A stretch of 64,000 bases of DNA from Eledone cirrhosa (taxonomy: Eukaryota). Positions within the stretch are counted from its first letter, which is position 1. Each line of letters starts with the position of its first letter. The stretch lies in NCBI GenBank assembly GCA_964016885.1, contig OZ024742.1, forward strand, positions 44,578,001 to 44,642,000. The letters are read 5' to 3'. The translations under genes were made by a program, and so were the position numbers. Below are positions 3,501 through 40,034 of this stretch, piece after piece. The notes beneath the pieces are model-generated. The model was not told the origin of the DNA. It did not search any database and was given only the letters and a program-made list of their open reading frames with translations.

Positions 3501-3566
3501 GTGGCCCTGCTTCCATGACGACCCCAAGCCACGCGCATTTATGCTGCCTATTCTGAGTGAGGTCAT
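507..3566 (-). pseudogene. Tx1 copy A ORF2 (APE endonuclease + RT + Zn motif), disrupted
   Basis: MTSLRIGSINARGL...ISETR, GVAVL, VGDWN, SYLDR, TDH (APE). KSPGLDG, RPITLLN, NLDQSKAFDRVDH (RT). Frameshift at about 3365-3369, a deletion of about 360 bp at about 1644 that removes YADD, and a TGG>TGA stop at 702-704. The true C-terminus is ORF 507..692. Confidence 0.92.
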
Positions 3567-3600
3567 GTTGAAAAGGAATGGAAAAGATGGGAAAGACCAC

Positions 3601-5572: not shown

Positions 5573-5782
5573 TTTTTTTTTCAAAGAAATTTTTTGATAA
5601 TAATAAAAGTTAAAATTTTGGGCACAAGGCCCCAATCTTTTTGGGTGTCCTTTTCGGAAAACAATGTATGTGTGCTTATAAACAGTTAACAATAAAATTT
5701 TCCATAAATGGCAATTTTTAACAAACGGAAATAACAAACCTTTGCGGAGCTCACGATGATACGATTTACTACGTAGGTCGCC

Positions 5783-5830
<48 letters not shown>
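5783..5830. repeat. (TAA)n microsatellite: tail of Tx1 copy B, abutting the 5' end of copy A
   Basis: 16 AAT units read directly. Confidence 0.98.
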
Positions 5831-5832
<2 letters not shown>

Positions 5833-8800
5833 TTTCTTTATTAACCACAAGGGTTTACATAAAGTAGACATCAAGGGCAGTGCAGGACAATACAGGACGG
5901 TACAAATGGGCATTTCTGCGTGTAAAAAACAAAAACAGAGGATGTAACAAAAAAATAACAATGAAAAATTCCAAAATAGGGGGGAGACTTCGGAGGGACA
6001 TTTGTGGAGAAAGCCCAGTAAAAGGCCACAGTGACCCTGACCACCAAGGCAAGTTCCCTCTCCCAGTTTTCCACCTTTAATTTACAGATACGTACTCAGA
6101 GTAGGCCCATTCACTCGGGCCATTCTTGCTTCTCTCACCCATCTTTCAACAAAATGCTCGGAAGAGAGCACTTCCCTCTCTACTCTGATTTTCCTTTTCA
6201 AATGAAATTTGAAAAAGTCAATCAGGGCATCACCGAAGAGGTAAGTGCTCGTCTTCAGCCTTTCAAACGTGTCCACCATACTATCTCTTTCGCCATGGCC
6301 ACCAGACAGATAAAAACTGCCTGCCCTACCCGGCTAAAGGAAGAGGGCGGGGCAATCCTCACGATGGACTCAGATGATAGCCGAATCCGTCCTACACGCG
6401 ACAGCAGGTGTTCGACATAAACCCACAAGTCAGCAATTTTCGGACACTGGACGAGTGTGTGCAGGACGGTTTCGTCGCCCTGCGCGCATCTCGGACATGC
6501 CCGTCTGACGGCACCTCCATGCCTGTAGAGTTTATCCCGAACTGGCAAGGCTCCTCGGTAGCACTGCCAGGCCAGAGATTTCTGGAAGTTGTCCATAGGT
6601 CCCGGCCCGAAAGTTCTTCCGAAGAGATTGACTAGTTGATTTTCGTCGACGCCTAGAGTTTCCCCAAGTACGTCGTCGCTCTTCCCCTCCACTAATCCTC
6701 TATAGAACGCCGAGGTGGAGTTTCCACCGATCACATTGCCCGATTGGTCGAGGGCTGTGAGCGCCTGAAGACATTCCAGTCTCCAAGCGCTCCCTCTCGG
6801 TCTTCGCTTGACCCAGGACTGCAGCTCTGTCAAGGAAACGAGCTGGGGAAATACGTGTCTAGCAAACGGCGACCACACCTGATCACCGTCGAGGAAGAGG
6901 TGGAGATGTCGTAGCCTGAGCGCGTGTCTGCGCATCATCAGCCACGGCATGCCCAGCCCTCCATGTAGCGGGTGTTGACAGCAGATGGACCGCCTGACCA
7001 TCGGAGCGCGTCCCTTCCACAAAAAGCGAAAGAGCAAACGCTCCAGCGCAGTCAGGCGGGGCTTAGGACAAGGTACGACGGTCAGGCGGTAGCAGATGAC
7101 AGACGCGATGTACGCGTTAGCCACCTCCGCTTGACCTTTCAGGGATAGCTTCCTCTCCGCCCATTTCTGGGTGAGAGAAGCCACCCTGCTCGTCACCTCG
7201 TCCCAGTTTTTGTCCGTCTGGAGGTCTGGACCGAACCAGTCCCCTAGCAATTTAACCGGTCCGTCCGTCCAGCGTCCGACGACGCTGTTGGACGGCATGG
7301 ACCTGCCTCTCCAGGTGCCGAGCTGCAGGCCCACTGACTTTTCCTGGTTGATCATTGCTCCTGTCACCGCTTCGTATTCTCTTAGTGTAGTGCCGATCGC
7401 CTCGATGTGTTTGGCGTTCGACACCACTACGGTGACATCGTCCGCATATGCTGACACGGATCTTCCGCATCCTAGTTCGCGCGGGACGCCTCTCAACGTC
7501 TCCAGTTTGTGCAGTAATGGCTCGAGAGTCAATACGTACAAGAGGGACGAAAGGGGACATCATTGGCGGACCGAGTGCATGATGTTGAACGGTTCCGAAA
7601 GGTGATCGTTCACTCTCACCACAGAGCAGATGTCGCTGTGCATGGCAACGATCCAGCCTCTAAAGACGGGCCCAAAGCCAGCCGCCCTCAGGACTGCCGC
7701 TAGGTAACGATGGTCGACCCTATCGAAAGCTTTCGACTGATCTAAATTGATCAAGGACCCACCCGTGCCAGGTTCCCTAGCTACCCTCTCTACGATGTAT
7801 CGCATGAGGTGGAGGTTGTCGTGGATGGATCTGTCGGGAATGGCGCATGTCTGCGCCTCTCCCACCAGACCACCAACGACAAGCGCCAACCTCTTTGCTA
7901 GCAGCTTTGCCAAAATCTTGAACTCTGTGTTTAGCAGAGTTATGGGCCTGAAATTATCTATGTTATCTCCCTTGTTCGGATCCTTTCTCAGCAGTGCCAC
8001 CGCTCCTCGGCTCACAGAGCTGGGAATTCTCCCGTTCTGTCGCCAGTTGCAGTAGACGTCCGCCAAGAGGCCTCCGAACAAGTCTGGCATCTGTACGTAA
8101 AGTTCATAGGGCAGACCATCCAAACCAGGTGATTTACCCCTTGTGCAGCCAGTCATTGTTTCTCGTACTTCAGCGGCTGTTATCGGCTTTTCGCAACACT
8201 CCGCCTCAGTGGCCGAGAGCCGCGGCAGTCCGTCGAGGTAGACACTAAAGTCCATCCCTCGACCCGGCCCACCGCTGCCCCCGAACAGCTGAGCGAAGTG
8301 TCGCTGAAAAGCTTTACACATTTGCCCGGAATCGAGTAGCATGCGCCCGTCGTGGTCCACCAAAGACCGGATCGTGGCTTTGTTGCCACGACGCGCCCCC
8401 GCCACTCGGGCCCATTGAACGGCTTTCGTCCCCTCGTGTCTGAGAGCACGCACCCTAGCTCTGACAACGCAGCCTTCGTGCTTGGCATTGAAGAATTGGT
8501 CAAAGGCCAATTTCTCCGCAAGTACGTCGGTCGCGATGCCTTTGCTAAGTGCATCGTCTAATTTTCTAACTAGTTCTCCCTCCGCTCTATTTTTCTCGAT
8601 TGCTAAAGCCTTACTAAACCTAATGGATTCTATTCTAATCGCTCTTTTCAGAGCAAACCACCACTTGTTGTTGACGATGGTCCCCGTCAACGCCCGCTTA
8701 ACTAGTTCGCTAATCCGGTCTCTGTAGGCCTTGCGCGCTGGTAAGGACGCGTTTAGCTGCCAGTGGCCGGGTCCTCGTCTATGAAGCCTATCTAAGTCAA

Positions 8801-9346
8801 GCACACAGATCACGAATTTGTGGTCCGTGTAGCTGACTATCTTGAATTGTGGACAGCCTATGCTAGACCTATCTATTTCCCTACAAAATACTCTATCTAG
8901 ATATGATCTGGATGACCCTATGAGATTTGTCCAAGTCCACATTGGCACATTCGGGAAATCCAATCGGTACCTGTCAGACAGTTCAAAACGCCTGAGCAGG
9001 TTGGTGAGGCTCTTGCACCCTCCACCCCTATCCGCTAATCCCACACAGTCCCAGCGTGCATCTAAGATCCCGTTGCAGTCGCCCACTAACACTAAAGAGC
9101 AGGACGTTCCAAGAATGGTCTCCAGACGCCGGAAGAAATCAGGCCGCCCTGCTCCTGTCGGGGCATAGACGGCCACTAGCCTGAAAGCTTGCCCGTCTCC
9201 GCTGGTCACGTCCAGCACCACCAACTTACTCTCTGGGTCCAGGAAGATGGCCCGTATGGCGAGATCGAAACCTCTCCGAAAAAGCACAGCAACTCCTCCC
9301 CCGATCCAGGACGGCTGGGAGATGCGTACACATCGTAGCCGCCGAA
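5831..9346 (-). mobile_element. Tx1/L1-clade LINE, copy B, 5'-truncated inside the endonuclease; same family as copy A
   Basis: Colinear with 266-3410 at high identity. Retains SAYADDV. Nonsense codon in the QG motif (VRQ*CPLS, 7560-7562) and a 1-nt frameshift near 6260. ORF2 C-terminus ends at 6082. Confidence 0.93.
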
Positions 9347-9690
9347 AAGTGAACAGTGTATCAGTCATGATATACACTCAAATACATGCTTGTGTGTGTG
9401 TACGGAGGGGGAATATATCATGTGTAGTGTTGGCGAAGTTCGGGAAGCATGGACGTTTTGAAGGATGCAGTGTCCCAACAGCTAATAACTGATGCAGGTA
9501 GTTTGTTCCATGTTTCAGCAACTCTGAGTACGAAAAGATGTTTCCAAAAGTCATGGGAGCTGTACTGTTTTCTGATTTTGAAAGCATGTCCACGGGTTAA
9601 ACACATGGAATTCAAAAAGATGCTCAGGGTTGTTGTTGGCAAGATGGTTAATAATTTTGTGGGTGTCTACCAAGTCAGTTGCCAGACGTC
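9347..9690 (-). mobile_element. CR1-clade LINE 3' fragment
   Basis: ORF 9418..9642 contains TRGHAFKI...LFVLRVAETWNKLPASVI...SFK, matching the CR1 ORF2 C-terminal RGH-K...RV..WN.LP...FK signature. Confidence 0.75.
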
Positions 9691-9912: not shown

Positions 9913-10191
9913 TGTATCCATGTCCAGAGAAGTAAGGCATTCAGAAATTGCTAAAACTTTATTTAAACATCTCTTTTCAAACCCTTTCCATTTCCCACCA
10001 CAGTCCATTTAACAACACTCTTCAATCAAAATGTTAGCATGAGGACGAAATCTTTTAAGGGCATCAATTTTTATTATCTTTACAACATACTTTGGTTCTT
10101 TACCTTTTTCTCTTCTTTATGTACATCCTTGGCTTCTACCAAATCTGCAAATTTTTTCAGTAAAAAAGCCCTTTCTCTTCTCCTTTCCTGT

Positions 10192-10510
10192 CATCATCAT
10201 CATCATCGATTAACGTCTATCTTCCACTCTAGCATGGGTTAGACGGGTTTGTCCCAATTAAAGGCAAGTTGGGTTGGATGACCGTGTCTCACTCACATAG
10301 GAGAGTTTCTGGGTGGTTTCTACAACTGGATGCACTTCCTAATGCCAACCATATTGACAGAGTGTGCTGGGTGCTTTTTGCCGTGTCTTTTACATATCCA
10401 CTTTACAGTGTGGGCTGGGTGTTTGGGCGCTGGTTTTTTATGGCTGGATACCCTTCCTAATGCCAACCACATTTACAGTGTGTGCTGGGTACTTTTCTTT
10501 GTGACACCTA
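10192..10510 (-). mobile_element. RTE-family 3' end fragment with (GAT)n tail
   Basis: Reverse complement of the end seen at 12120-12310 (GTCTAACCCATGCTAG...GACGTTAA-(TGA)n and GTGGTTGGCATTAGGAAG...CATCCAG). Confidence 0.7.
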
Positions 10511-11155
10511 CACGATACAATTATAAGATGTCACCTTCCAATGTCACATCCAATCCAGCTTCAGCAAACTTTGAAACTTCTTCATTACCCCACATCCTTC
10601 AATGTTGTTCTTTGACTTGAGTAGAACTCCCATCCAAACTGCATTTCAGTAGTTTCTCATGACCCTTTTCAGGCAATATCAATAAAATGGACAGCATTTA
10701 AAATGTCAAATGACTGCCAGCAATCTTTTACAGTCATATCAGTGATAGTGTCTAATACCTTGACTATTTTCTTAAACAATTCCTGACGGTAGTGCCTGAA
10801 TTATGGTGAAAAGAAACCAAAGATTGTAAAACATCATAGAAATTCTGTAAACATGCTTTTCTTAAAATAATTATGTTTTGTATGACTTCAATTGTTTATA
10901 ATCAGTTATCTGAACAAAACACTCCCAGCTCATCTCATTTAGATAATTGCAATCTAACTGTAATACACAAATCTTTCACAAAGAATAGTGTGTAAAAAAA
11001 AAAAAAAAAAAGAAAAAAAAAAGATCTTGTTTATAATTGCTCAGTTACCCTATATGCTGGCTGGCTGAAATTGCACTGGTGGTGCTGCTGTGAAAATTTA
11101 AATTAGGGAAAATTTCAAATGGCATAAAATTAGAATGGCCAGTAAATATATATAT

Positions 11156-11294
11156 ATCTTTATTTTATTTAGAAATGACTTCTACAGGACTAGAACTATT
11201 TCATTTATATGAAATCATTGGGACATTTCTGATGATTTTGAGTGAATGAAACAGTTCTAGTCCTGTAGAAGTCATTTCTGAATACAATAAAGAT
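11156..11294. repeat. 50-bp inverted repeat (11156-11205 / 11245-11294) between (TA)n tracts; probable PLE inverted pseudo-LTR remnant
   Basis: The arms match at 47 of 50 positions when reverse-complemented. The right arm overlaps a hammerhead motif and an AATAAA. Confidence 0.85.
11222..11273 (+). ncRNA. Type I hammerhead ribozyme-like motif (degenerate stem II)
   Basis: CTGATGA at 11229-11235 and GAAA at 11248-11251. Stem III is CAG/CTG around an 8-nt loop. GTA cleavage triplet at 11265-11267. Stem I is GAC(A)TTT paired with GAAGTC. Confidence 0.62.
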
Positions 11295-11559
11295 GCCTAT
11301 AATCTACCAATGTATTTCCCAATCCCCATCAGGAATCCACCCATAATTATATATATATCTTACTAAACCCCCACAGAACAGAGAACGCTCTTCTTTTGTG
11401 CCAAAGACCAACAACCAATCTAGCCTTGGTATTATGTTGTTTTTTTTTCACCCTGACTCCAAGTTCTTCTGCTCCTGTTGTATATAATTAACCCTGAAGT
11501 TCCATCAAAGTCAATATTATCCAAATGTTTAATCAAAGGAATGGAAGAAGTTCAGGGAG

Positions 11560-12320
11560 CTACTACCAATGCTAGTTACAAAAGGCTTTTCCCCAAAAAA
11601 TAAAAGGAAGACTGTATGATGCATGTATACGAACAGCAGTGTTGCATGGTAGTGAGACCTGGGCACTGTGTGCAGAAGACTTGCAAAGATTGGAAAGAAA
11701 TGAAGCTTGCATGCTCCGATAGATCTGTAATGGTAATATACATGAATGGCAAAGCATAAATGAACTGAGAGAAAAACTAGGCATAAGATGAATTAGATGC
11801 AGTGTGCAGAAGAGAAGATTATGTTGGTATGGACATGTGATGCATATGAAGGATGACAGCTGTGTAAAAAGGTGCAGAGCGCTCAAAGTTGATGGAAACC
11901 ATGGAGTGGGGAGGACCCAGAAAGACTCGGGATGAGGTGATAAAAGCTGACCTAGCACAATTGCACCTCTCAAAGATGATGACAGGACTAAGATCTCTGG
12001 TGCCATGCAGTAACACAGAAGACCCACCTTCCCATGGGCACACTGTAAAGTGGTTGTGTAAGTCTCCTGACAAAAAGCACCCAGTCCACACTATAAAGTG
12101 GTCATGTAGCTGTCACAACAAAAAGCACCCAGTATTCACTGTAAATATGGTTGGCATTAGGAACGGCATCCAGCTGTAGAAACCAAGCCAAAATCAGTTC
12201 TGTATGAGCAAGACATGGTCTCCTAATCTGGCATTTCTCATAACAGGACAACTTGTCTAACCCATGCTAGCATGGAAACTGGACGTTAAATGATGATGAT
12301 GATGATGATAATCATCATGA
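11560..12320 (+). mobile_element. RTE-clade LINE, 5'-truncated, degenerate, with (GAT)n tail
   Basis: Plus frame reads KGRLYDACIRTAVLHGSETWA...LERNEACMLR*IC...RRLCWYGHV...GPRKT, the RTE C-terminal region, with stops. The 3' end carries (TGA)n at about 12290-12310. Confidence 0.85.
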
Positions 12321-13135: not shown

Positions 13136-13669
13136 AAGCAAAGCTGTTGGCCCTTAATTTCCCTACACTCTAATGAGGCTATACACCTAACTACAGTTTT
13201 ACCACTGGATGACATCCAGCAATGACTTTTATTTATAAGTTGGTTTATATCAACAGTCATTTTATTGACTGAAGTTTTCTGTCTTAAAGTATTTTCTTGA
13301 TTAGGTTACCATACAATAATTTTATGTATTTTCTTGATTAGGTTACCATACAATAATTTTATGTAAGAACACACTAGTTTTACCATAAATACATAATTCA
13401 TACAATGTGTGTGTATGTATGCATATGTAAAAATATGTTCACACATATCTATACAATGCTGTATGTATGCATATACCAGCACAAATAGAGAGAGAGTGAG
13501 ACATACACAAAAGTGGAACATATTGAGCAAGACATGGTTCTCTGACCTGTGTTATATTAGATTGTTGTGAGTAATTTAACACTAGCATGGAGAGCAAATA
13601 TAAAATAAGGATGATACACATGTTTCAGGCATATATGATATATAAAACCTGCCAGATACAGTACTATAT

Positions 13670-13778
13670 GAGCGAGACATGGTCACCAGATCAATCTTGC
13701 CTCAAGTGGAACAATTCCCGTCTAACCCATACTAGCAGGGAAGATAGACGTTAAACGATGATGATGACGATGATGATG
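13670..13778 (+). mobile_element. RTE-family 3' end fragment
   Basis: GTCTAACCCATACTAGCAGGGAAGATAGACGTTAAAC followed by (GAT)n, the same end as at 12256-12310. Confidence 0.65.
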
Positions 13779-13925
13779 AAACATATATATATATATTATT
13801 GAATAAAATGACAGGAAGCCAGATTGGTGAAATTCCTTTAAAGTTTGATTTTTGCAGACACTATATATATTTCAATGGCCAGCTCTATCCAATGGTGAAC
13901 CACCAATTTCAATGAATATATATAT

Positions 13926-16900
13926 ATGAGTGATGTAAAACTACCGGAAGAATTTACCAATGACCACACAGTAAATATCTATGGGAACACTTTAATCAGT
14001 GAACAAGAACAACAAATCCTAAAGTTACCACCAAAATTTGCCATCTACAAAAAGATTAATCCTATGGAATGCAAAACGGAGCTGGAAAAGTGTTTCACAA
14101 AAATACGTTGGAATGCAAAGGTAAACAACAACAACAATAATAACGGTAGTAGTAATATAAACAATAACTCTGGGTATAGAAATAACAGCCATAACCATAA
14201 CAATGGCAGGAAAGTGAGAAATAGTGATAATGGTAATAATACTAGCGATAGACAGAACAACAACAACCACAATAATAATAATAATAGAAACGTTAACCAC
14301 AGACACAGCAACAGTGACCACAGTAGTAATAACGGTAACAATACGAACAACAACAACAACAATAACCACAGTGGTAATAATGGAAATAGTACATGTAGCA
14401 ACATCAACAAAAACAAGAAACATAATAATAGTAACAACCACAATGGTAGAAATAGCAGTAACAACAACAACAATAACGGTGAAGTAAACAACAATACATC
14501 TAGCAATCATAACAATAATAATATTAATGCTAAGGATAGAAACAACAACAACCACCATGATAACAATAATAGCAACACACACAACTATGACGATAGAAAT
14601 AACGACAACCCCTTAGAGAAACTATTTTTCAACCCAGCTGACAAAACATATAAGATGGGTAATATCTATCCTACGAGGTTACCCTTTAATAAAAGAGTTT
14701 GCATACCACAACAAATAGATGACGAGACGGAGGCACAGTTCACCATAGCTAGAAATAAGATTAGACAAGTAGTAGACAGGTACACTATGAGACAGAGCAG
14801 ACCAGAGGCCCAACAACTTGGGATAAAACCTGTAGAAGGCTTGGTTAGCCTCAAGCAGCGCACAAGGGATGGTGAGGTAGTGTGTCTACCCACAGATAAG
14901 TCTGGTAGGATGTCAATAGATAGCATGCCGAACTACATCGAGGCAATGCAACCCCACATCACCAACACGAGCGAAGTTGCACAACTAACACACGATGGGA
15001 GAGAAAAAATCCTCAACGCTCACATGATGATGTGGACTGACATCCTAAAGCCAAGCAGACGCACTGCCAACAACTTCCAGGCGTCTAACAATGGCATACC
15101 ACCCTTGTATGGGCTCCGCAAAGACCACAAGACAGTCGACGACCCGACAATAGGACCACCAACAAGACCGGTATGCGGAGCTAATATAGCTAGCAACTAC
15201 AGGATCTCCTACTTCCTCTCAATGGTTATACGCCCCATAATCAAGATGTCCCCAGATGTATGTGAAAGTACAGAGGACCTCCTCAGCAGAATCAGTGAGT
15301 GCAACAAAAACAGGAGCCTATCCAACTGCATAATAGGCAGCATGGATGTGGTGTCACTGTACCCATCCATTAACATTGATTTTGCTGTGAAAAGATGTGT
15401 GGAGATGATCATTGAGAGTGAGGTGGAGTTCTGCGACGTCGACACAGACGAACTGGGCCTCCTACTTAGGCTTACCTACGACACTGACTACCTAGACAGC
15501 CATGACCTTAGATGTTTCTGCCCTAGTAGACCTATAAGAGGTAGACCCCCCACCATAACCTCAATGGCTAAAAAGACTCCCATAGGAAGGTGGATTGGGT
15601 GGACCAAAGCTATACGGACCCCCCAAAACACTGATCAGGTAAGAAAAATGGTCGCACATGCAATAGGGGCTAGTATCAAAACTACCCTAAAGGGCCACAT
15701 ATTTAAGTTCAATGAGAAAATCTACACCCAAAATGAGGGAGCAGCCATCGGCGTCAGCATAGCTGGCGATGTTGCCAACCTTTTCATGGTATGGTGGGAA
15801 AGGAGACTTAAAGATCTCCTTAATGAAAGCTCCATAGACCTCATCATGTACTCTCGTTATGTAGACGATATCAATATAGTTATAAGAACACCCCCACTAG
15901 AGAGCACTAACAAGTTTGATTTAGAACGTAGCACGATGGAAAGCATCCAGCAGATAGCTAATTCCATACACCAGAGTATAACTCTAACTATAGACTTCCC
16001 TTCCAAACACCCTAACAATAGACTACCTGTATTAGACACAGAACTCTGGATTAACACTATAGACGAGAGAGCCCAAATTCTCCACTCACACTATGCTAAA
16101 CCCATGGCCTCCAAATACCTGATACTCAAAAACTCAGCAATGTCCAGTAGTGCTAAGTTTAATATTCTGATCGCAGATTTGGTACGAGTGATGAAGAATG
16201 TGTCCAGCATGTGCGACCCAACAGAAATGGAAGGACACATCCAACACTTCATCAACCGCATGCAGTTCTCTGGCTACAACCAAAGAGACAGAGTCAGAGT
16301 ATACGAAGGAGCCATGGAAAAGTATAAGACCCTCATAGAACTGGACATGAAAGGAATTTGCCCACTATACAGGAGCAAATCATGGAATAGCTTAGATAGG
16401 GCTAGACATAAGATAGGGAAGGCCACATCATGGTACGACAACCAGAGATATCAGAGTGTCATGTTTGTGGACGCCACCCCTGGAGGGAAATTAGCTAACC
16501 AGTGTAGAAAGGCCCTGAGAAAGACCCACTTAAAAATAAAGGTGGTAGAAAAGCCAGGAACCACCATAAAATCCCTGATCAGCAAAACCTACCCTTTTAA
16601 GAAAACCCACTGTACCAATAGGAAATGTATCATATGTAAGGTGAACCCCCGGATAAACTGTAAAACTAGAAACGTAGTCTATAGCATAAGATGTACAGAG
16701 GGTACTTGCAGAAACACGACAACAACATACATAGGTGAGACAGCTCGTAGCATAGGTGAAAGGATAGACCAACACTGGGGGGAACTAAAAGGACGAAAAA
16801 ACGGGTCAGTACTATACGAACATGCTAGACAACATCATGACGGTAACATAGACAACATAGAAATTAGAATAATATCTAAACATAGGAATGACCCAGCAGA

Positions 16901-17015
16901 TAGGCAAATCAGAGAGGCCAGTGAAATAGAAATTAGAAGACCAAAGCTAAACAGAAAGAATGAGTGGAACAACAACAACACCCAAACAAACAACACTGAC
17001 CTAAGAGAAGTATAA
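13926..17015 (+). CDS. PLE polyprotein, 1029 aa uninterrupted: Asn-rich insert, RT, Cys-rich linker, GIY-YIG endonuclease
   Basis: PTDKSG, LYGLRKDHK, RPV, SMDVVSLYPSI, QNEGAAIG, RYVDD, LPVLD. Linker CTNRKCIIC. EN NVVYSIRC...YIGETARSIGERIDQH...H...RQIREA...LN. The ATG sits at the (TA)n junction and is probably not the native start. Confidence 0.92.
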   Translation: MSDVKLPEEFTNDHTVNIYGNTLISEQEQQILKLPPKFAIYKKINPMECKTELEKCFTKIRWNAKVNNNNNNNGSSNINNNSGYRNNSHNHNNGRKVRNSDNGNNTSDRQNNNNHNNNNNRNVNHRHSNSDHSSNNGNNTNNNNNNNHSGNNGNSTCSNINKNKKHNNSNNHNGRNSSNNNNNNGEVNNNTSSNHNNNNINAKDRNNNNHHDNNNSNTHNYDDRNNDNPLEKLFFNPADKTYKMGNIYPTRLPFNKRVCIPQQIDDETEAQFTIARNKIRQVVDRYTMRQSRPEAQQLGIKPVEGLVSLKQRTRDGEVVCLPTDKSGRMSIDSMPNYIEAMQPHITNTSEVAQLTHDGREKILNAHMMMWTDILKPSRRTANNFQASNNGIPPLYGLRKDHKTVDDPTIGPPTRPVCGANIASNYRISYFLSMVIRPIIKMSPDVCESTEDLLSRISECNKNRSLSNCIIGSMDVVSLYPSINIDFAVKRCVEMIIESEVEFCDVDTDELGLLLRLTYDTDYLDSHDLRCFCPSRPIRGRPPTITSMAKKTPIGRWIGWTKAIRTPQNTDQVRKMVAHAIGASIKTTLKGHIFKFNEKIYTQNEGAAIGVSIAGDVANLFMVWWERRLKDLLNESSIDLIMYSRYVDDINIVIRTPPLESTNKFDLERSTMESIQQIANSIHQSITLTIDFPSKHPNNRLPVLDTELWINTIDERAQILHSHYAKPMASKYLILKNSAMSSSAKFNILIADLVRVMKNVSSMCDPTEMEGHIQHFINRMQFSGYNQRDRVRVYEGAMEKYKTLIELDMKGICPLYRSKSWNSLDRARHKIGKATSWYDNQRYQSVMFVDATPGGKLANQCRKALRKTHLKIKVVEKPGTTIKSLISKTYPFKKTHCTNRKCIICKVNPRINCKTRNVVYSIRCTEGTCRNTTTTYIGETARSIGERIDQHWGELKGRKNGSVLYEHARQHHDGNIDNIEIRIISKHRNDPADRQIREASEIEIRRPKLNRKNEWNNNNTQTNNTDLREV

Positions 17016-17284
17016 ATAAATAAGTAAATTAAATTAAATAAAATAAGATAAATAAATACATACACAAGCACATAAACACACACTAGTCACCCAGCAGACA
17101 ACACTATACACACTAGTCACACATCACACATAACACTATACACACACGCAAACGCATGCGCAAAGAAGACAAAATAAAATAAGATAAACAAACAAGCAAA
17201 TAAATAAATAAATAAATATATAGACAGACTGAACAAAAAAATGGCGTAGACATACAACACAACAGGAGGAACAATGAATATAAC

Positions 17285-17325
17285 ACCACTGACGATGTTG
17301 CAGATGTGCAACGAAAGATTTATGT
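17285..17325 (+). ncRNA. Minimal type I hammerhead ribozyme motif in the PLE1 pseudo-LTR
   Basis: CTGACGA at 17289-17295, stem II GTTGCA-GATG-TGCAAC, GAAA at 17313-17316. The near-palindromic AGATTT forms a minimal stem III with a TTA triplet. Stem I is weak. Confidence 0.65.
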
Positions 17326-17529
17326 AAACTATATATATATGTGTTTGTCTATATTGTATCTGTATTATTTTTGACCGCCGGTCAGTCAATGGCAACATTG
17401 AGGACCGAGTAAGTTAGATCGCAGATATATATATATAAAAGACAGCGAGAAGCGAAAACCAACCAAACAGTGAGTGTGTTCTGTTATTAATTCTGGCAAT
17501 ATTACGCAAATATGACCCTCCCCAAATAT

Positions 17530-17533
<4 letters not shown>

Positions 17534-17572
<39 letters not shown>
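17534..17572. repeat. (TA)n microsatellite at the PLE1 3' junction
   Basis: Read directly. Confidence 0.95.
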
Positions 17573-27660: not shown

Positions 27661-28059
27661 AATGATGATGAATTGTTAATTCTATAACATAAAATATTAA
27701 AGTTGGAGACTAAGCTAGTGAGACAAGCACTGAAGCACCATTAACTACATATTTAGTCTCAGTTACTATAAGTGGTGAGTTTAATACCTGACACCCGACT
27801 TTAATTCCTCAGAACTTTATAAATCATGCATATTTTAAAATAAAATTATACAAATACGTTTTCGAAGGTGTAGATAACGACTAGCACAATGAAATGTGTT
27901 TGCACTTTATCGTCGTAGAAACTACATTAGGTTCCAGCAGAAAATCTATTATATTGTATTATCCTATTTGAAACAATTCGTCAACAAGAAATGTTTCAAA
28001 ATCTTTTATTCACAGCTGTATAAAAATATGATAATATAATGCTTGGAATGGTTGCTGCG

Positions 28060-28600
28060 CAATATCGAGTCGTTCTAGGTTGGGCAGCTTTCAACAAGAA
28101 CAAGGAAATACTAACATCAAAACGAGTTTCCTATCATTCGAAGGCTCAGATCTTTGATACTTACTTCCTACCAGTTGTGTTATATGGTATTGACTGTGTT
28201 AATTGGACGACAAGATCACTTCAAAAGCTCTCTATATTCCAGAACCACATCACCAGACTTATAACTAGCAAGCAGTTCAACGACCGTATCTGTATCAGTG
28301 AGCTGCTCAACATTACCAAACTTAAACTAATTACATCAATTGTCAAGTCAACAGTACTCAAACTATACGGCCATATAAAAATATCAACTGGTGGTGTGAG
28401 TAGGTTATGCCTGGAAGGAAGGTTGGCTGGTAAGAGAAGCAGTGGCCGGCAGCCAAAACGATGGCTTGACAATGTCTATTCATGGACTGGACTTGATCTT
28501 TGCTCTTAGAACTCTGCTGCTGGTGATCGAACTTTGTGGAGAGAGCTATCACATGTTGATGCGGAGTCTGCAACTGTCGGAGATTAGCGTCACAAGAAAA
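28060..28600 (+). mobile_element. RTE-clade LINE 3' fragment
   Basis: LGWAAF...KAQIFDTYFLPVVLYG...LKLYGHI...LEG...GKRSSGRQPKRWLDNV. Confidence 0.8.
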
Positions 28601-28830: not shown

Positions 28831-29752
28831 ACAAAACATTGGAAAGTATGATGAAAAAAAATTCCCAAATTTACGTTTAGTCTACTACAAACACAAACCA
28901 AAAGTATTCAGTAAACTAAAGTGTAAAATGGATCCAGCTCACGTTAGGACACACTAAAGAAATGAAATTGCCTCGTCCATCGAACACACTCTTTGTGGCA
29001 GTATGTATGTCATTGAGGTACACCCTTTTATTGGATATGTTAACCAGACCTGCTAACCTCTAAAAACCCAAATGGAGAGTACCATGAAAAAAATGCCCCA
29101 AAACGGGGAGAAATGAGGCAAAATGGGGAGATGTTACATAATGAAAGCTGTACCCCTTTTCACAAGAGAAGACATCTCTCACCCACCCCAAAGTGGGTGG
29201 TAGATCTCTCCGTCTGACGCGGAAAGTCGACAGGTCTGTATTAACCTGTCAATTTGCACATAAAATGTTGGTTCCAACACTCGAACTAAGAACATTCAAG
29301 TGACGCAGATTATAAAATTAGATGAAAATCTGAGACTAATGAAAATTCTTGAAATTTTTTTTCGGAATCAACGTTATTTTGATTCGTAACTTTTTCAATG
29401 TCTTCCCGCCAAAAATGTATGTAATGCAGTCTTTTCAACAGAAATATTTGCGTGTCATTTGGATGCAAGAGGATTATAATTTCACAAGGTATTTATCCAT
29501 TGGCCTAGCATTCATTACTTTATTTATATATATATATATTTCGTTTCTGAATTTGTTTAGCAAGATTCTTTATCTGAAATCGTGTGTTGAAACCGATATT
29601 GTTATACTTTGGGAGGGTCATGTTGCCAATAAGAAACACATGCACCAGTTGCTTTCACTTCAATTTATTATAATAAATTTATAATAAATTTATAAATTTA
29701 TAAATTTCTGGTTGGTTGGTTGGTTCCACAACCAGATAGTTGTTTATATATT

Positions 29753-29795
29753 GTCATAGTTCTTTCGTCACACACTCTGTGACCTCTTCAGTGAC
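29753..29795 (-). ncRNA. Minimal type I hammerhead ribozyme in the PLE2 pseudo-LTR
   Basis: Minus strand reads GTCA-CTGAAGA-G-GTCACA-GAGTG-TGTGAC-GAAA-GAACTA-TGAC: 4-bp stem I, 6-bp stem II, minimal stem III, CTA triplet. Confidence 0.8.
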
Positions 29796-29996
29796 TGGGG
29801 ATTCCTTTCTTTGTTTCTGTGCCTCTCCTTTGTTCTGTCCTACGCCATTTTGTTTCTGTGTGTGTGTTGTGTGCTCAGTCTGCGCATGCGCCACATCCGG
29901 GTGTCTGTGTGTGTTTATGTTCATTTATTTATTTGTTTATTTACATGTTACTGGTTGGTTGTTTGTTCTATGTGTGTGTGTGTTTTCATTTTGTCC

Positions 29997-31862
29997 TTAA
30001 TTGTAAGTTGTGATGTTGCTGTTCCACTCATATTTTCTATTTAATTTTGGTTGTAATTCTTTTATGTTTATTGCCTCTGTAATTTGTCTAAACATTGCGT
30101 CTTTTCTGTGTGTAGATTCTATTTTTATTTCTATGTTCTCTAATTTACCCTTGTGTTCTATTTTAGCATGTTGGTAGAGTACAGATGATTCTTTACTATT
30201 TTGAAGGTCTCGCCAGTGTTCATTTATCCGTTCCCCTACACTACGAGCTGTCTCACCTATGTACACTATATTTTTGTCTCTACATTGTCCTTCAGTACAT
30301 CTTATGCTATACACTACATTTCTAGTTTTACAGTTAATATGGGGGCTTATTTTACAGGTTATACATTTCTTATCTATACCCTATTGAAAAGGGTATGTCT
30401 TGCTAATAAGTGTTTTTACGGAGGTACCTGGTCTTTCTACTATCTTAATATTGAGTTTATGTTTATTTAGGGCCCTTCTAAATTTGTAAGCTAATTCACC
30501 TCTAGGGGTTGTATCGATGAACATTACACTCTGGTATTTATTGCTATCATACCATGAGTTTATTCTATTAGCCTTGTTCCTAGTTCTTTCTATTCTATTC
30601 CAAAATTTTCTCCTATACAAGGGGCTGGTCCCATTTATGTCATTATTTACCATTTTTTCCCATTTGGTTCTGGCTCCTCTATACACTCTGATTTTATCTC
30701 TCGGATTGTAGCCAGAGAACTGCATACGGTGGATGAAGTGTTGTATGCGTCTCTCTAGTTCTTCGGGGTTGCACATGCGGGACACGTTTCTCATCACCCG
30801 TACCAAATCCGTAATCAGTATGTTGATTTTGGTATGGTCCAAAACGGCCGAGTTTCGGTGGATCAGATGTTTGGAAGTCATGTGTTTGGCATAATGGGAA
30901 TGGAGGATTTGTTTTTTGTTATTAATGGTATCTAACCAGAGCTCTGTGTCTAGTACAGGTAATCGATGGTTGGGGTGTTTACTTGGGTAGTCTATAGTAA
31001 CTCTAATGCTCTGGTGGATGGAGTTAGCTATTTGCTGGATGCTTTCCATTGTGTTTTTCTCTATTTCCTGACTGTTCTCTAGTGGGGGTGTCTTAACTAC
31101 GATGTTTATATCATCAACGTAGCGGGAGTACATTATCTGGGTTAAGGGGTCTTCTAATTGTTCTTTAAGTTTAAGTTTAAGTCTACTGTCCCACCATAAT
31201 AAGTTAGCTATGTCGCCTGCAATGCTAACACCAATGGCTGCTCCTTCCTCTTGGGCATATGTTTTTCCATTAAATTTGAACATATGTTCCTTAAGGGTTA
31301 GTTTTATGCTGGCCCCTACCGCATGTGCAATCATTTTCTTCAGTTCATCGTGGTTTTCGGGTGTCCGTATGGCTCTGGTCCACCCGTTCCATCTATCTGT
31401 GTGGGTTTTCTTGGCCATTGAGGTAATGGTAGGTGGTCTGCCTCTTGCTGGTCTTGTAGGGCACAAGTTGCTAAGGTCATATGTGTCTAGGTAATTATTA
31501 CTATAGGTAAGTTTAAGTAGGAGTCCCAGCTCACTGGTATCAATCCCACGGAACTCAACATTGCTCTCACTGATCATTTCTACGCATTTCTCCACAGCAA
31601 AATCCACGTCAATAGATGGATACAGGGACACAACATCCATACTACCTATTATGCAGTTTGTTAGGTCCCTAGATCGGTTACTCACGCCGATTCTGCTGAG
31701 GAGGTCCTCCGTGCTGTCACATACATCTGGGGACATTTCAATGATGGGGCGTATGATCAGGGAGAGGAAGTAGGACAGTCTGTAGTTACTAGCAATGTTA
31801 GCTCCACAGACTGGCCGTGTTGGTGGTCCCGCGACAGGGTCACTGCCCGTTTTATGGTCTTT
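29997..31862 (-). pseudogene. PLE2 RT-GIY-YIG ORF remnant
   Basis: ORFs 30381..31736 and 29997..30314 are in the same frame. The linker reads *GIDKKCITCKISPHINCKTRNVVYSIRC. Confidence 0.88.
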
Positions 31863-32574
31863 TCATGTCATCCTGACTTCTTGATGCTACTTTGTGATGT
31901 TTTATTTTCAGATCTTGAAGGAAGACATAGACAGAGATAGTAAAATCTGATCTCAAGATCCTGAACTTTGCAAAAGAGAAAAGTGAAGAGAGGTTCTATT
32001 CAAGAGGATTTGTCTAACCCAAGCATTTTAATGTCATTTTGCCTGCTAAAGAAGGGGTTAGACTTGTAGGCCCTATAGCAGGCCCCATACTCATAATCTC
32101 ATAATGTGGTCCTTTTTTAAGCAATGTTTTACAGCCTGGTGCCAATGTTTTCAGTCACCCCTTACATATAGATACATATATATATAAATAGAAACTCACT
32201 TGCTCACTCTCATACACACAAGTATATATATTTATATATTTATTTCATAATTGGCAACATATTAAATGTTACCAATGTATAAGTGAACATTGTTTGTGAT
32301 ATTGCTTCCAAGTTCTATTGATGTCTACACTAAATATTACTAAATATGCATTAGAGCAGCTGTTTTTCTTTCTAACCTAGCAACAGTGAATAGAACATTC
32401 TTAACACAGCCACAAAAACCATACATAAATTATTTCCATATACACCCACGGTGGAAATATCTGCTTAAACAAGCATACATATTATTTATAGAAATAGCAG
32501 TAATTTCTCTTTCAAATTGTCTTAACCATTTTGTGGTCGTATTTATGGTTTCTAACTTATGAACATGGCCGGTA

Positions 32575-33789: not shown

Positions 33790-34690
33790 GTTGTGGAGGT
33801 ACTGTGTGGTATTGATGGTGGAAATTGTAGTTATGGTGGTAGTGGCCGTGCTTGTATTGGAGATGCTGTGTTGTGCTGGTTGTGGCAGTTGTAGCTGTGG
33901 TGGTGGTGGGTGATGATTATGGTAGTTGTCATGGTGGTAGTGGTGAGGCAATGTACTTGTAGTGGAGGTACTATGTTGTGGTAGTTGTAGTGGTGGTAGT
34001 AGTTATAGGGAGATGAAGTATTGGTTGTGGTGGTATGGTAGCTGTGTTAGTTTAATGGTGGTAACTGTGGCTGTTGTTATGGTGGGTGGTGGTGATGGTA
34101 CTTGTAGAGCTTCTGTGTTGTGCTATTAGCAGTGCTGTTGGCAGCTGCACTAGTATGGTGGATGGTGGTGTTGACTGTAGTATTGATGATTGTGCTAGTG
34201 GTGCTATTGGTCATAGTGATGCTGTTTTGTAGAGGTGGTGCTCATGCTAGTTGTACTAATGGAAAGGATTGTTGTTGTTTAGCCCAAGGTCAACCCTAAT
34301 GGAACAGGTTCATGATCAAAGACATTACAATCACTATGATCCTATCTTTTCCTTGTATGCAAGGAACTTATGACCATAACAGCCAATGTATTGTTCTAAG
34401 ATGGTAGTGTAAGATTTAAAAGAATTTAGCTGTTATATCTAGCAAGATGAGTGATCACATAGAGAATCACTTGTTGGCTTTAATTGTAGGTGTGTATTGT
34501 AGTAGTGGTGGTGGGATTGTAGTGGCAGTGGTAGTAGTATTGTATGATAGTGGTGGTAATAGTGATGATAGTGACAGTAGTGATGTATGGTTGTAGTAGT
34601 AGTTGTTCTGGTGTATGGTAGTAGTGATAGTGATGGTAATAGTAGTGGTGTATGGTGGTAATAGTAGTAGTGGTGTTAGTGGAGGTGGTA
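33790..34690. repeat. Degenerate (GTG/GTA/GAT)n low-complexity zone leading into satellite 1
   Basis: G/T-rich trinucleotide mosaic without a fixed period, interrupted by about 230 bp of unique sequence near 34260-34490. Confidence 0.8.
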
Positions 34691-37600
34691 GTAGTAGTAG
34701 TGGTGATAGTGGTAGTTGTGGTGTTGACAGTGGTGGTGGTAGTAGTAGTTGTGGTGATGGTATTAGTTGTGATGTTGACAGTGGTGGTGGTAGTAGTAGT
34801 TGTGGTGATGGTATTAGTTGTGATGTTGACAGTGGTGGTGGTAGTAGTAGTTGTGGTGATGGTATTAGTTGTGATGTTGACAGTGGAGGTGGTAGTAGTA
34901 GTTTTGGTGATGGTGGTAGTTGTGGTGTTGACAGTAGAGGTGGTAGTAGTAGTTGTGGTGATGGTATTAGTTGTGGTGTTGACAGTGGTGGTGGTAGTAG
35001 TAGTTGTGGTGATGGTGTTAGTTGTGGTGTTGACAGTGGAGGTGGTAGTAGTAGTTGTGGTGATGGTATTAGTTGTGATGTTGACAGTGGTGGTGGTAGT
35101 AGTAGTTGTGGTGATGGTGTTAGTTGTGGTGTTGACAGTGGTGGTGGTAGTAGTAGTTGTGGTGATGGTATTAGTTGTGGTGTTGACAGTGGTGGTGGTA
35201 GTAGTAGTTGTGGTGATGGTGTTAGTTGTGGTGTTGACAGTGGTGGTGGTAGTAGTAGTTGTGGTGATGGTATTAGTTGTGGTGTTGACAGTGGTGGTGG
35301 TAGTAGTAGTTATGGTGGTGGTATTAGTTGTGATGTTGACAGTGGAGGTGGTAGTAGTAGTTTTGGTGATGGTGGTAGTTGTGGTGTTGACAGTGGAGGT
35401 GGTAGTAGTAGTTGTGGTGATGGTATTAGTTGTGGTGTTGACAGTGGTGGTGGTAGTAGTAGTTGTGGTGATGGTATTAGTTGTGGTGTTGACAGTGGAG
35501 GTGGTAGTAGTAGTTGTGGTGATGGTGTTAGTTGTGGTGTTGACAGTGGTGGTGGTAGTAGTAGTTGTGGTGATGGTGTTAGTTGTGGTGTTGACAGTGG
35601 TGGTGGTAGTAGTAGTTTTGGTGATGGTATTAGTTGTGGTGTTGTCAGTGGTGGTGGTAGTAGTAGTTTTGGTGATGGTATTAGTTGTGGTGTTGACAGT
35701 GGTGGTGGTAGTAGTAGTTTTGGTGATGGTGTTAGTTGTGGTGTTGACAGTGGTGGTGGTAGTAGTAGTTGTGGTGATGGTGTTAGTTGTGGTGTTGACA
35801 GTGGTGGTGGTAGTAGTAGTTGTGGTGATGGTGGTAGTTGTGGTGTTGACAGTGGTGGTGGTAGTAGTAGTTGTGGTGATGGTGTTAGTTGTGGTGTTGA
35901 CAGTGGTGGTGGTAGTAGTAGTTGTGGTGATGGTATTAGTTGTGATGTTGACAGTGGTGGTGGTAGTAGTAGTTGTGGTGATGGTGTTAGTTGTGGTGTT
36001 GACAGTGGTGGTGGTAGTAGTAGTTGTGGTGATGGTATTAGTTGTGGTGTTGACAGTGGTGGTGGTAGTAGTAGTTGTGGTGATGGTATTAGTTGTGATG
36101 TTGACAGTGGTGGTGGTAGTAGTAGTTGTGGTGATGGTGTTAGTTGTGGTGTTGACAGTGGTGGTGGTAGTAGTAGTTTTGGTGATGGTATTAGTTGTGG
36201 TGTTGTCAGTGGTGGTGGTAGTAGTAGTTTTGGTGATGGTATTAGTTGTGGTGTTGACAGTGGTGGTGGTAGTAGTAGTTGTGGTGATGGTGTTAGTTGT
36301 GGTGTTGACAGTGGAGGTGGTAGTAGTAGTTGTGGTGATGGTATTAGTTGTGGTGTTGTCAGTGGTGGTGGTAGTAGTAGTTTTGGTGATGGTATTAGTT
36401 GTGGTGTTGACAGTGGTGGTGGTAGTAGTAGTTGTGGTGATGGTGTTAGTTGTGGTGTTGACAGTGGAGGTGGTAGTAGTAGTTGTGGTGATGGTGTTAG
36501 TTGTGGTGTTGACAGTGGTGGTGGTAGTAGTAGTTGTGGTGATGGTGTTAGTTGTGGTGTTGACAGTGGTGGTGGTAGTAGTAGTTGTGGTGATGGTATT
36601 AGTTGTGGTGTTGACAGTGGTGGTGGTAGTAGTAGTTATGGTGGTGGTATTAGTTGTGATGTTGACAGTGGAGGTGGTAGTAGTAGTTTTGGTGATGGTG
36701 GTAGTTGTGGTGTTGACAGTGGTGGTGGTAGTAGTAGTTATGGTGATGGTGTTAGTTGTGGTGTTGACAGTGGTGGTGGTAGTAGTAGTTGTGGTGATGG
36801 TGTTAGTTGTGGTGTTGACAGTGGTGGTGGTAGTAGTAGTTGTGGTGATGGTGTTAGTTGTGGTGTTGACAGTGGTGGTGGTAGTAGTAGTTGTGGTGAT
36901 GGTGTTAGTTGTGGTGTTGACAGTGGTGGTGGTAGTAGTAGTTGTGGTGATGGTGTTAGTTGTGGTGTTGACAGTGGTGGTGGTAGTAGTAGTTATGGTG
37001 ATGGTATTAGTTGTGATGTTGACAGTGGAGGTGGTAGTAGTAGTTTTGGTGATGGTGGTAGTTGTGGTGTTGACAGTGGTGGTGGTAGTAGTAGTTTTGG
37101 TGATGGTGGTAGTTGTGGTGTTGACAGTGGTGGTGGTAGTAGTAGTTGTGGTGATGGTGGTAGTTGTGGTGTTGACAGTGGTGGTGGTAGTAGTAGTTGT
37201 GGTGATGGTGTTAGTTGTGGTGTTGACAGTGGAGGTGGTAGTAGTAGTTGTGGTGATGGTGTTAGTTGTGATGTTGACAGTGGTGGTGGTAGTAGTAGTT
37301 ATGGTGATGGTATTAGTTGTGGTGTTGACAGTGGTGGTGGTAGTAGTAGTTTTGGTGATGGTGGTAGTTGTGATGTTGACAGTGGAGGTGGTAGTAGTAG
37401 TTTTGGTGATGGTGGTAGTTGTGATGTTGACAGTGGTGGTGGTAGTAGTAGTTTTGGTGATGGTGGTAGTTGTGGTGTTGACAGTGGTGGTGGTAGTAGT
37501 AGTTGTGGTGATGGTGGTAGTTGTGGTGTTGACAGTGGAGGTGGTAGTAGTAGTTTTGGTGATGGTGGTAGTTGTGATGTTGACAGTGGTGGTGGTAGTA

Positions 37601-40034
37601 GTAGTTTTGGTGATGGTGGTAGTTGTGGTGTTGACAGTGGTGGTGGTAGTAGTAGTTGTGGTGATGGTGGTAGTTGTGGTGTTGACAGTGGAGGTGGTAG
37701 TAGTAGTTGTGGTGATGGTGTTAGTTGTGGTGTTGACAGTGGAGGTGGTAGTAGTAGTTGTGGTGATGGTGTTAGTTGTGGTGTTGACAGTGGAGGTGGT
37801 AGTAGTAGTTTTGGTGATGGTGGTAGTTGTGATGTTGACAGTGGTGGTGGTAGTAGTAGTTTTGGTGATGGTGGTAGTTGTGGTGTTGACAGTGGTGGTG
37901 GTAGTAGTAGTTGTGGTGATGGTGTTAGTTGTGGTGTTGACAGTGGAGGTGGTAGTAGTAGTTTTGGTGATGGTGGTAGTTGTGATGTTGACAGTGGTGG
38001 TGGTAGTAGTAGTTTTGGTGATGGTGGTAGTTGTGGTGTTGACAGTGGTGGTGGTAGTAGTAGTTGTGGTGATGGTGTTAGTTGTGGTGTTGACAGTGGA
38101 GGTGGTAGTAGTAGTTTTGGTGATGGTGGTAGTTGTGATGTTGACAGTGGTGGTGGTAGTAGTAGTTTTGGTGATGGTGGTAGTTGTGGTGTTGACAGTG
38201 GTGGTGGTAGTAGTAGTTGTGGTGATGGTATTAGTTGTGGTGTTGTCAGTGGTGGTGGTAGTAGTAGTTGTGGTGATGGTGTTAGTTGTGGTGTTGTCAG
38301 TGGTGGTGGTAGTAGTAGTTGTGGTGATGGTGGTAGTTGTGGTGTTGACAGTGGAGGTGGTAGTAGTAGTTGTGGTGATGGTGTTAGTTGTGGTGTTGAC
38401 AGTGGAGGTGGTAGTAGTAGTTGTGGTGATGGTATTAGTTGTGATGTTGACAGTGGAGGTGGTAGTAGTAGTTGTGGTGATGACAGTGGAGGTGGTAGTA
38501 GTAGTTGTGGTGATGGTGTTAGTTGTGGTGTTGACAGTGGAGGTGGTAGTAGTAGTTTTGGTGATGGTGGTAGTTGTGATGTTGACAGTGGTGGTGGTAG
38601 TAGTAGTTGTGGTGATGGTGGTAGTTGTGGTGTTGACAGTGGAGGTGGTAGTAGTAGTTGTGGTGATGGTGTTAGTTGTGGTGTTGACAGTGGAGGTGGT
38701 AGTAGTAGTTGTGGTGATGGTATTAGTTGTGATGTTGACAGTGGAGGTGGTAGTAGTAGTTGTGGTGATGACAGTGGAGGTGGTAGTAGTAGTTGTGGTG
38801 ATGGTGTTAGTTGTGGTGTTGACAGTGGAGGTGGTAGTAGTAGTTTTGGTGATGGTATTAGTTGTGATGTTGACAGTGGAGGTGGTAGTAGTAGTTGTGG
38901 TGATGGTGTTAGTTGTGGTGTTGACAGTGGAGGTGGTAGTAGTAGTTGTGGTGATGGTGTTAGTTGTGATGTTGACAGTGGTGGTGGTAGTAGTAGTTAT
39001 GGTGATGGTATTAGTTGTGGTGTTGACAGTGGTGGTGGTGGTAGTAGTAGTTATGGTGATGGTGTTAGTTGTGGTGTTGACAGTGGAGGTGGTAGTAGTA
39101 GTTGTGGTGATGGTGTTAGTTGTGGTGTTGACAGTGGTGGTGGTAGTAGTAGTTATGGTGATGGTATTAGTTGTGATGTTGACAGTGGAGGTGGTAGTAG
39201 TAGTTTTGGTGATGGTGGTAGTTGTGGTGTTGACAGTGGTGGTGGTAGTAGTAGTTTTGGTGATGGTATTAGTTGTGGTGTTGACAGTGGTGGTGGTAGT
39301 AGTAGTTGTGGTGATGGTGTTAGTTGTGGTGTTGACAGTGGAGGTGGTAGTAGTAGTTTTGGTGATGGTATTAGTTGTGGTGTTGACAGTGGTGGTGGTA
39401 GTAGTAGTTGTGGTGATGGTGTTAGTTGTGGTGTTGACGGTGGTGGTGGTAGTAGTAGTTGTGGTGATGGTGTTAGTTGTGGTGTTGACAGTGGTGGTGG
39501 TAGTAGTAGTTGTGGTGATGGTATTAGTTGTGGTGTTGACAGTGGTGGTGGTAGTAGTAGTTGTGGTGATGGTGTTAGTTGTGGTGTTGACAGTGGTGGT
39601 GGTAGTAGTAGTTGTGGTGATGGTATTAGTTGTGGTGTTGACAGTGGTGGTGGTAGTAGTAGTTTTGGTGATGGTGGTAGTTGTGGTGTTGACAGTGGTG
39701 GTGGTAGTAGTAGTTTTGGTGATGGTATTAGTTGTGGTGTTGTCAGTGGTGGTGGTAGTAGTAGTTTTGGTGATGGTATTAGTTGTGGTGTTGACAGTGG
39801 TGGTGGTAGTAGTAGTTGTGGTGATGGTATTAGTTGTGGTGTTGACAGTGGTGGTGGTAGTAGTAGTTGTGGCGATGGTATTAGTTGTGGTGTTGACAGT
39901 GGTGGTGGTAGTAGTAGTTGTGGTGATGGTATTAGTTGTGGTGTTGACAGTGGAGGTGGTAGTAGTAGTTGTGGTGATGGTATTAGTTGTGGTGTTGACA
40001 GTGGTGGTGGTAGTAGTAGTTGTGGTGATGGTGT
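34691..40034. repeat. Satellite 1: 51-bp unit GTTGACAGTGGTGGTGGTAGTAGTAGTTGTGGTGATGGTRTTAGTTGTGRT, about 105 copies
   Basis: 17-codon periodicity (VDSGGGSSSCGDGVSCG) across 5.3 kb. Confidence 0.97.

Follow-up and report, generated by a model that had tools for sequence, protein, structure and literature searches.

Where does the ORF of a retrotransposon begin when both copies at a locus have lost their 5′ ends? PLE1 and PLE2 raise this question. They are two PLEs in a 64,000-nt stretch of the Eledone cirrhosa genome (assembly GCA_964016885.1, contig OZ024742.1, positions 44,578,001 to 44,642,000; hereafter the window), and each is followed, beyond its stop codon, by a short Met-initiated frame that runs into (TA)n. 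The reading we favor, at a probability of roughly 0.88, is that both are 5′-truncated PLEs whose 3′ ends extend past a UTR bearing a hammerhead-like motif and reach what are likely the opening codons of the element's own gene. Such an arrangement likely arose via reverse transcription that started at a point within the ORF start of the unit that follows on a tandem RNA. Both copies share one order: a truncated RT-EN frame is followed by a UTR that contains a hammerhead-like core, then by an ATG-initiated stretch of 9 or 27 codons, and finally by (TA)n (Table 1).

Table 1. Features of PLE1 and PLE2 in window coordinates.
Feature	Position	Strand	Remarks
(AT)6 at PLE1 5′ junction	13916..13927	.	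overlaps the AT of ATG 13926
PLE1 RT-EN frame from internal Met	13926..17015	+	uninterrupted; lacks ~170 N-terminal residues
PLE1 untranslated spacer (pLTR body)	17016..17511	+	496 nt from stop to ATG
PLE1 hammerhead-like core	17289..17316	+	CTGACGA, 6-bp stem II, GAAA; stem I imperfect
PLE1 tail	17512..17538	+	probable first 8-9 ORF codons; passes into (AT)n at an ATAT that PLE2 has too
(AT)19.5 at PLE1 3′ junction	17534..17572	.	
(TA)n at PLE2 3′ junction	29525..29538	.	
PLE2 tail	29541..29621	-	probable start (27 codons) of the RT-EN ORF of this family; may extend into the following AAT AT
PLE2 untranslated spacer (3′ UTR + 5′ UTR = pLTR body)	29622..29996	-	375 nt
PLE2 minimal-hammerhead-like core	29763..29791	-	CTGAAGA, 6-bp stem II, GAAA; stem I GUCA/UGAC in MFE fold
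PLE2 RT-thumb-linker-GIY-YIG frame	29997..31862	-	5′-truncated at KDHK (~residue 420 of full-length relatives)

The uninterrupted frame of PLE1 spans 13899-17015 (+), that of PLE2 contains one in-frame stop (30381-30383), and the two copies, 72% identical over 1.85 kb, represent different subfamilies. As in other EN+ PLEs, a single ORF joins an RT to a C-terminal GIY-YIG endonuclease, and a 3′ terminal repeat probably holds the ORF start or tail. Pfam matched GIY-YIG in PLE2 above the cut-off (24.6 bits) and RVT_1 in PLE1 below the cut-off only, and the YVDD and linker motifs are present. The original prediction placed the ORF start in a partial-tandem pseudo-LTR. The ORF start probably does lie in the 3′ repeat, but neither copy has a tandem or partial-tandem arrangement in place: both are single 5′-truncated units, which are common among PLEs, and neither spacer recurs, upstream or inverted, within bases 1-34,400. 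No target-site duplication is readable because the ends lie in (TA)n. The 5′ junction of PLE2 (31862-31880, minus strand), unlike its 3′ end, is in non-repetitive DNA without (TA)n, the nearest (TA)n being ~300 nt off. Within PLE1, an in-frame, Asn-rich stretch of 170 residues (14112-14621, plus strand; residues 63-232, 83 of them N) occupies a position where relatives have a short low-complexity linker. It recalls the Asn-rich in-frame inserts of Adineta Penelopes, although these, in the sections of PMC3846280 describing them, lie in the RT-thumb or RT-EN linker, whereas the PLE1 stretch is upstream of the RT core.

CTGAnGA...GAAA cores number three on both strands of bases 1-34,400, and only two have a 6-bp stem II, one in each spacer (at 17289 in PLE1 and 29791 in PLE2); among 100 Markov-resampled controls, one contained a core with such a stem. 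Stems I and II both form in the fold of the PLE2 motif, which resembles the minimal PLE hammerheads illustrated in PMC4209133. The fold z-scores of the two motifs are only -0.4 and -1.0, and Rfam, at E<=5 over 10,000-34,000, returned 25 matches, none of them a hammerhead. From their sequences, we regard both spacers as carrying a putative hammerhead motif, as in the pLTR of EN+ PLEs. The stem II sequences differ between the two cores, yet pair in each.

Are the tails coding? On retranslation, the minus strand from 29621 to 29541 proved, as predicted, to be an open stretch of 27 codons cut by (TA)n, MTLPKYNNIGFNTRFQIKNLAKQIQKR. It starts 375 nt past the PLE2 stop codon and 3′ of the hammerhead-like core; upstream of its Met the frame is open for 11 codons without another Met, and downstream it extends through the (TA)n as NIYIYK before reaching a stop. 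That PLE1 shares the first nine residues was likewise borne out, since 17512-17538 reads MTLPKYNNI. The two 27-nt stretches differ at positions 12, 15 and 27, all of them third-codon positions and all synonymous (CCC/CCA, AAA/AAG and ATA/ATC); the original prediction had named the first two changes correctly but did not include the third, situated where the tail overlaps the edge of the (TA)n. By enumeration, the chance of an all-synonymous pattern is 0.04 for two changes and 0.009 for three, and the chance of eight identical non-Met residues is 0.04, given an ORF-wide identity of 67% over 614 codons. CCCAAA/CCAAAG can also be aligned as one deletion plus one insertion, and the UTRs of PLE1 and PLE2 share one further 24/27 match, in low-complexity (AAAT)n. 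The synonymous pattern alone is weak evidence of coding, and the 27-nt observation taken alone is modest evidence; similarity to the N-termini of relatives is the stronger indication.

A search with PLE1 residues 235-1015 found at least 131 relatives, of which 120 were listed; the closest named one among the matches listed is a predicted protein of Octopus vulgaris (68%). Also among the matches listed, 56 relatives align to the first 66 residues of PLE1, and 32 of these 56 have 156-211 residues upstream. In an RT tree that took in 41 of 119 rows, and with which a 119-row FastTree agrees, PLE1, PLE2 and six full-length references (P0007, P0010, P0017, P0023, P0038 and P0050) form one clade with support of 100/99. 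The N-termini of these references are predicted ORF starts, were picked after being seen and then tree-checked, and include MVKTKLPCYGLCFSTRETISQLSNQI (P0038), MALKPINYGYNTRSIINAIT (P0017) and MAITRGLSFDTRDTINLILD (P0023). The Met-anchored mean score of the tail peptide against the six was 19.8. Leave-one-out scores of true members were 17.2-25.8 for five and 4.8 for P0007, and Met-fixed shuffles scored 4.3+/-3.2, with 1 in 10,000 reaching 19.8. Among the 605 stop-free, Met-started 27-mers of the window the tail peptide ranked first (runner-up, 14.8). Similarly, against a profile built from residues 1-175 of seven relatives, the peptide left out and P0115 included (this relative, too short for the tree, was omitted from the Met-anchored scoring), it topped 4,160 six-frame pieces, aligned to profile positions 1-27, at an E of 2.7 that is not significant window-wide.

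Only anchored or profile comparisons detected this similarity. Blastp-short, phmmer and tblastn gave no useful E-value for the peptide against the N-termini of relatives, and with a profile built from all 32 long relatives it stayed outside the top ten rows. The 17 out-of-clade N-termini showed no similarity to it (378 of 2,000 shuffles were as good). The 44-residue frame holding the peptide had two candidates among longer proteins, none at E<=10, and PLE1 residues 1-70 had six among shorter proteins, none at E<=0.001. The best 150 entries of a profile search of cluster representatives added no in-clade full-length N-terminus and contained nothing that convincingly matched the peptide, and no entry of the protein set joins the tail peptide in frame to the RT (...LKLPPKF). 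The prediction that the peptide is the 5′ start of the RT-EN ORF is nonetheless supported by its Met-anchored homology to the six in-clade relatives, a support that comes from homology and not from direct continuity.

Could the 27 nt instead act in cis without being translated, or form a short upstream ORF, with the real start at another place, such as one reached once a 5′ UTR intron has been spliced out, as in Drosophila Penelope? The promoter region of Penelope does hold an intron, according to the account of that element in PMC2377424, a GTGAGT donor-like word lies upstream of the PLE1 ATG, and between the hammerhead-like core and the tail ATG there are five other ATGs in PLE1 and two in PLE2. 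None of these others begins a peptide common to both copies, whereas the tail has solely synonymous differences and matches the relatives' N-termini in both its residue pattern and the position of its Met, and we consider an element of this kind very improbable.

If the tail is the ORF start, what is ATG 13926, from which PLE1 can be read without interruption? Judged by its relatives, it is not the start of the ORF, because the in-clade full-length proteins have 170-174 residues before that position. The original prediction was sound to this extent; its further claim, that the ATG is a junction artefact, fared less well. Among the matches listed, 30 relatives align from this residue, 14 close ones all with Met and 16 distant ones with Ile, Val or Leu; expressed by clade, 14 of 17 in-clade relatives carry Met at this site and three carry Phe, and none of 16 out-of-clade relatives has Met. 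This Met is internal in 11 of the 14 (among them P0115, which is absent from the tree) and stands at a predicted protein start in three. Since Met is conserved there within the clade, ATG 13926 is probably the element's native internal Met codon at the truncation point. That the codon arose by chance, where the (AT)n target was joined to an element-derived G, is an explanation we think improbable: its AT is the last unit of the (AT)6, and these two bases are for that reason unassignable, but such a join would account neither for the clade's Met nor for tblastn alignments that continue two codons beyond the ATG, to 13920. A leftover N-terminal piece of the ORF upstream of 13926 was also considered and rejected, as tblastn found none.

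How might such copies have formed? By analogy with the biochemistry of an anole PLE, the protein would bind ORF-start RNA, its GIY-YIG endonuclease would nick AT-rich (TA)n DNA, and the RT would initiate internally, ~+26 or +82 into the next ORF, copying back across the UTR and the preceding ORF. Synthesis would have ended early, leaving uncopied about 170 codons at the start in PLE1 and 420 in PLE2, and each copy would as a result be a circularly permuted fragment without an upstream promoter repeat, and probably dead on arrival. The two copies, whose tail codons match by homology the N-terminus of full-length clade members, fit the published internal-initiation model in the steps that we infer for them.

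The prediction that both insertions began reverse transcription inside the coding start of the next unit agrees with the mechanism set out in the biochemical sections of PMC11167929, as transferred here; the short end of PLE1 is the part that may not hold. Both 3′ ends read AATAT into (TA)n, with end points at ~+26 and +82, and that of PLE1 falls exactly at the sole internal ATAT (+23 to +26) of the 81-nt PLE2 tail. This pattern suggests either priming by microhomology, unlike in PAc, or a later deletion in PLE1, in which a longer tail was lost by deletion or slippage between the internal ATAT and the (TA)n target, so that +26 would not mark an RT start. The (AT) tract of PLE1 is the longest in bases 1-34,400 (38 nt), and microhomology-mediated deletions are among the changes that PMC3846280 reports in Adineta Penelope copies. 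Priming by annealing to an ATAT of the RNA predicts the same pattern, however, and two end points tens of bases apart, with and without a tail, are a signature of PLEs in the published examples. We therefore consider such a loss the less likely course, and it would affect only the claim about both insertions. Because the copies are 72% identical subfamilies, their end points may not represent a pair of sites used by the same element.

The remainder of the window is also rich in repeats. Two different tandem arrays, each with a 51-nt period and a strong G skew, occupy 34630-40034 and 40817-64000, the latter with ~450 copies and continuing past the window edge. On the minus strand, 702-9377 contains two adjacent copies of non-LTR retrotransposons that resemble each other and carry the domains Exo_endo_phos, RVT_1 and zf-RVT; we take them to be L1/Tx1-like, and ORF1-like frames lie between them at 3601-5854. 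A frame of 161 codons at 28024-28509 (+) has no Pfam match and presumably resembles a C-terminal fragment of a LINE RT, RTE-like. A MITE-like inverted repeat of 70 nt with a 13-nt spacer (84% complementary) lies at 11149-11301, and several copies of a dispersed repeat ending in (GAT)n are found (10191-10319, 12250-12308 and 13645-13773), one of them ~150 nt upstream of PLE1.

To which PLE lineage does the family belong? Its linker reads CX4CXXC-X7-C in PLE1, with a spacer of 7 in 96 of 144 matches and a CxxC-to-C spacer of <=13 in 143 of 144. The second His pair of the CCHH is present in 65/65 rows with the YxGE motif, DKS in 72/75 matches and RKDHK in 61/65. The parts of PMC8557442 that treat Nematis and Neptune give both a C-terminal GIY-YIG with a CCHH and a CX2-5CxxC linker, as here. 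The reduced linker before GIY-YIG and the short CxxC-to-C spacer (by eye against Fig. S2) are shared with Nematis in particular. The absence of an IFD and the short A-B′ spacing of that clade (~60 by eye) are not shared, the spacing being 128 in our two copies and 123-141 across the family, and DKS replaces DKG and is accompanied by LRKDHK. The long linker of Neptune (~25-30 residues from CxxC to the next C as read from Fig. S2 of PMC8557442) was not found; in that clade a microsatellite bias is linked to the CX2-5CxxC linker, and the junctions here are (TA)n. With Hydra, as characterized in the same source, the family has in common KDHK, the RW(K) motif, a changed DKG, (TA)n targets, hammerheads and aquatic invertebrate hosts. 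However, Hydra elements are described there as <3 kb, with a CxCX5C linker and without CCHH and IFD, whereas the present family has CCHH-type residues, CX4CXXC, a large insertion and ORFs of ~1,050-1,170 aa, and we rejected Hydra on the CCHH and the linker. Penelope/Poseidon, which lack a Zn-finger linker, were set aside on the presence of one here, and Naiad/Chlamys, with an N-terminal endonuclease and no canonical hammerhead, on the C-terminal endonuclease and the hammerhead-like core.

The large insertion lies between RT motifs A and B′ (~15345-15729, plus strand, in PLE1; ~31637-31253, minus strand, in PLE2), at the position of the telomerase IFD. The A-to-B′ spacing is 128 residues in both copies and within its family range in all 94 sequences, of 269, in which motifs A, B′ and C could be parsed, ~70 residues beyond canonical C-terminal-EN PLEs; the E, CPxR, G, P, R, W and P of the insertion are conserved in 76-98% of up to 93 rows. 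Counted by eye in the supplement of PMC8557442, the spacing is 58 in Penelope, ~60 in Nematis and ~115 in human TERT, and the main account there gives insertions in the fingers of ~+20 for Naiads and of 20-40 for Chlamys, while canonical C-terminal-EN PLEs have none. That supplement contains none of five motif words typical of the present family, and the literature sampled on C-terminal-EN PLEs describes no such insertion; Repbase, Dfam, Arkhipova 2006 or bioRxiv supplements may already hold or name the family. A PDB profile search gave two weak bacterial RT matches and no TERT match, and the only ESM atlas matches were eukaryotic clusters of RVT_1, HTH_animal and DUF8422. It is a tentative and rather unlikely proposal that these are members of an undescribed C-terminal-EN PLE clade that would combine a linker of the Nematis type, RT motifs resembling those of Hydra and a conserved insertion of telomerase size in the fingers of the RT (~70 extra residues) with priming by an ORF-start AUAU annealed to nicked (TA)n, unlike the homology-free priming of the anole element. 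If true, a widespread lineage with a TERT-sized insertion would bear on the relationships of PLEs and telomerases, because canonical C-terminal-EN PLEs lack, in the treatment by Craig et al. 2021 (PMC8557442), the insertion in the fingers shared with telomerase.

An ORF start in the terminal repeat is an already known feature of PLEs, of which PLE1 and PLE2 are an instance; their value is that the family's start codon and RT start region can be read from two broken copies, with no change to the model. In the descriptions of Pen2a of Adineta vaga and Penelope of D. virilis (PMC3846280, PMC2377424), the 3′ terminal repeat likewise carries the first ORF codons and an optional extension; the Pen2a pLTR has the first 12 residues, or 22 with its tail, as against 8-9 and 27-28 codons here, and neither of our copies has the second, upstream or inverted, repeat in place. 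The sections of PMC11167929 on anole PLE protein in vitro report that it depends on the initial 172 nt of the ORF RNA and nicks AT-rich DNA, that it initiates reverse transcription internally, 111-118 nt into the ORF, and that genomic tails end at those sites. Neither of our tails forms a stable RNA structure (fold z +1.1 and +1.2), and no counterpart of the PAc stem-loop is evident in them. Whereas PAc starts at a site without target homology and its ATG overlaps the ribozyme, the ends here lie at an AATAT that adjoins (TA)n, and 170-223 nt separate the hammerhead-like core from the ATG downstream of it. Poseidon PAc of Anolis nevertheless shares with PLE1 and PLE2, on the same account, ends inside the ORF start, AT-rich targets and a hammerhead in the pLTR, here a hammerhead-like motif, and the two copies extend this known PLE signature to a non-Poseidon lineage.
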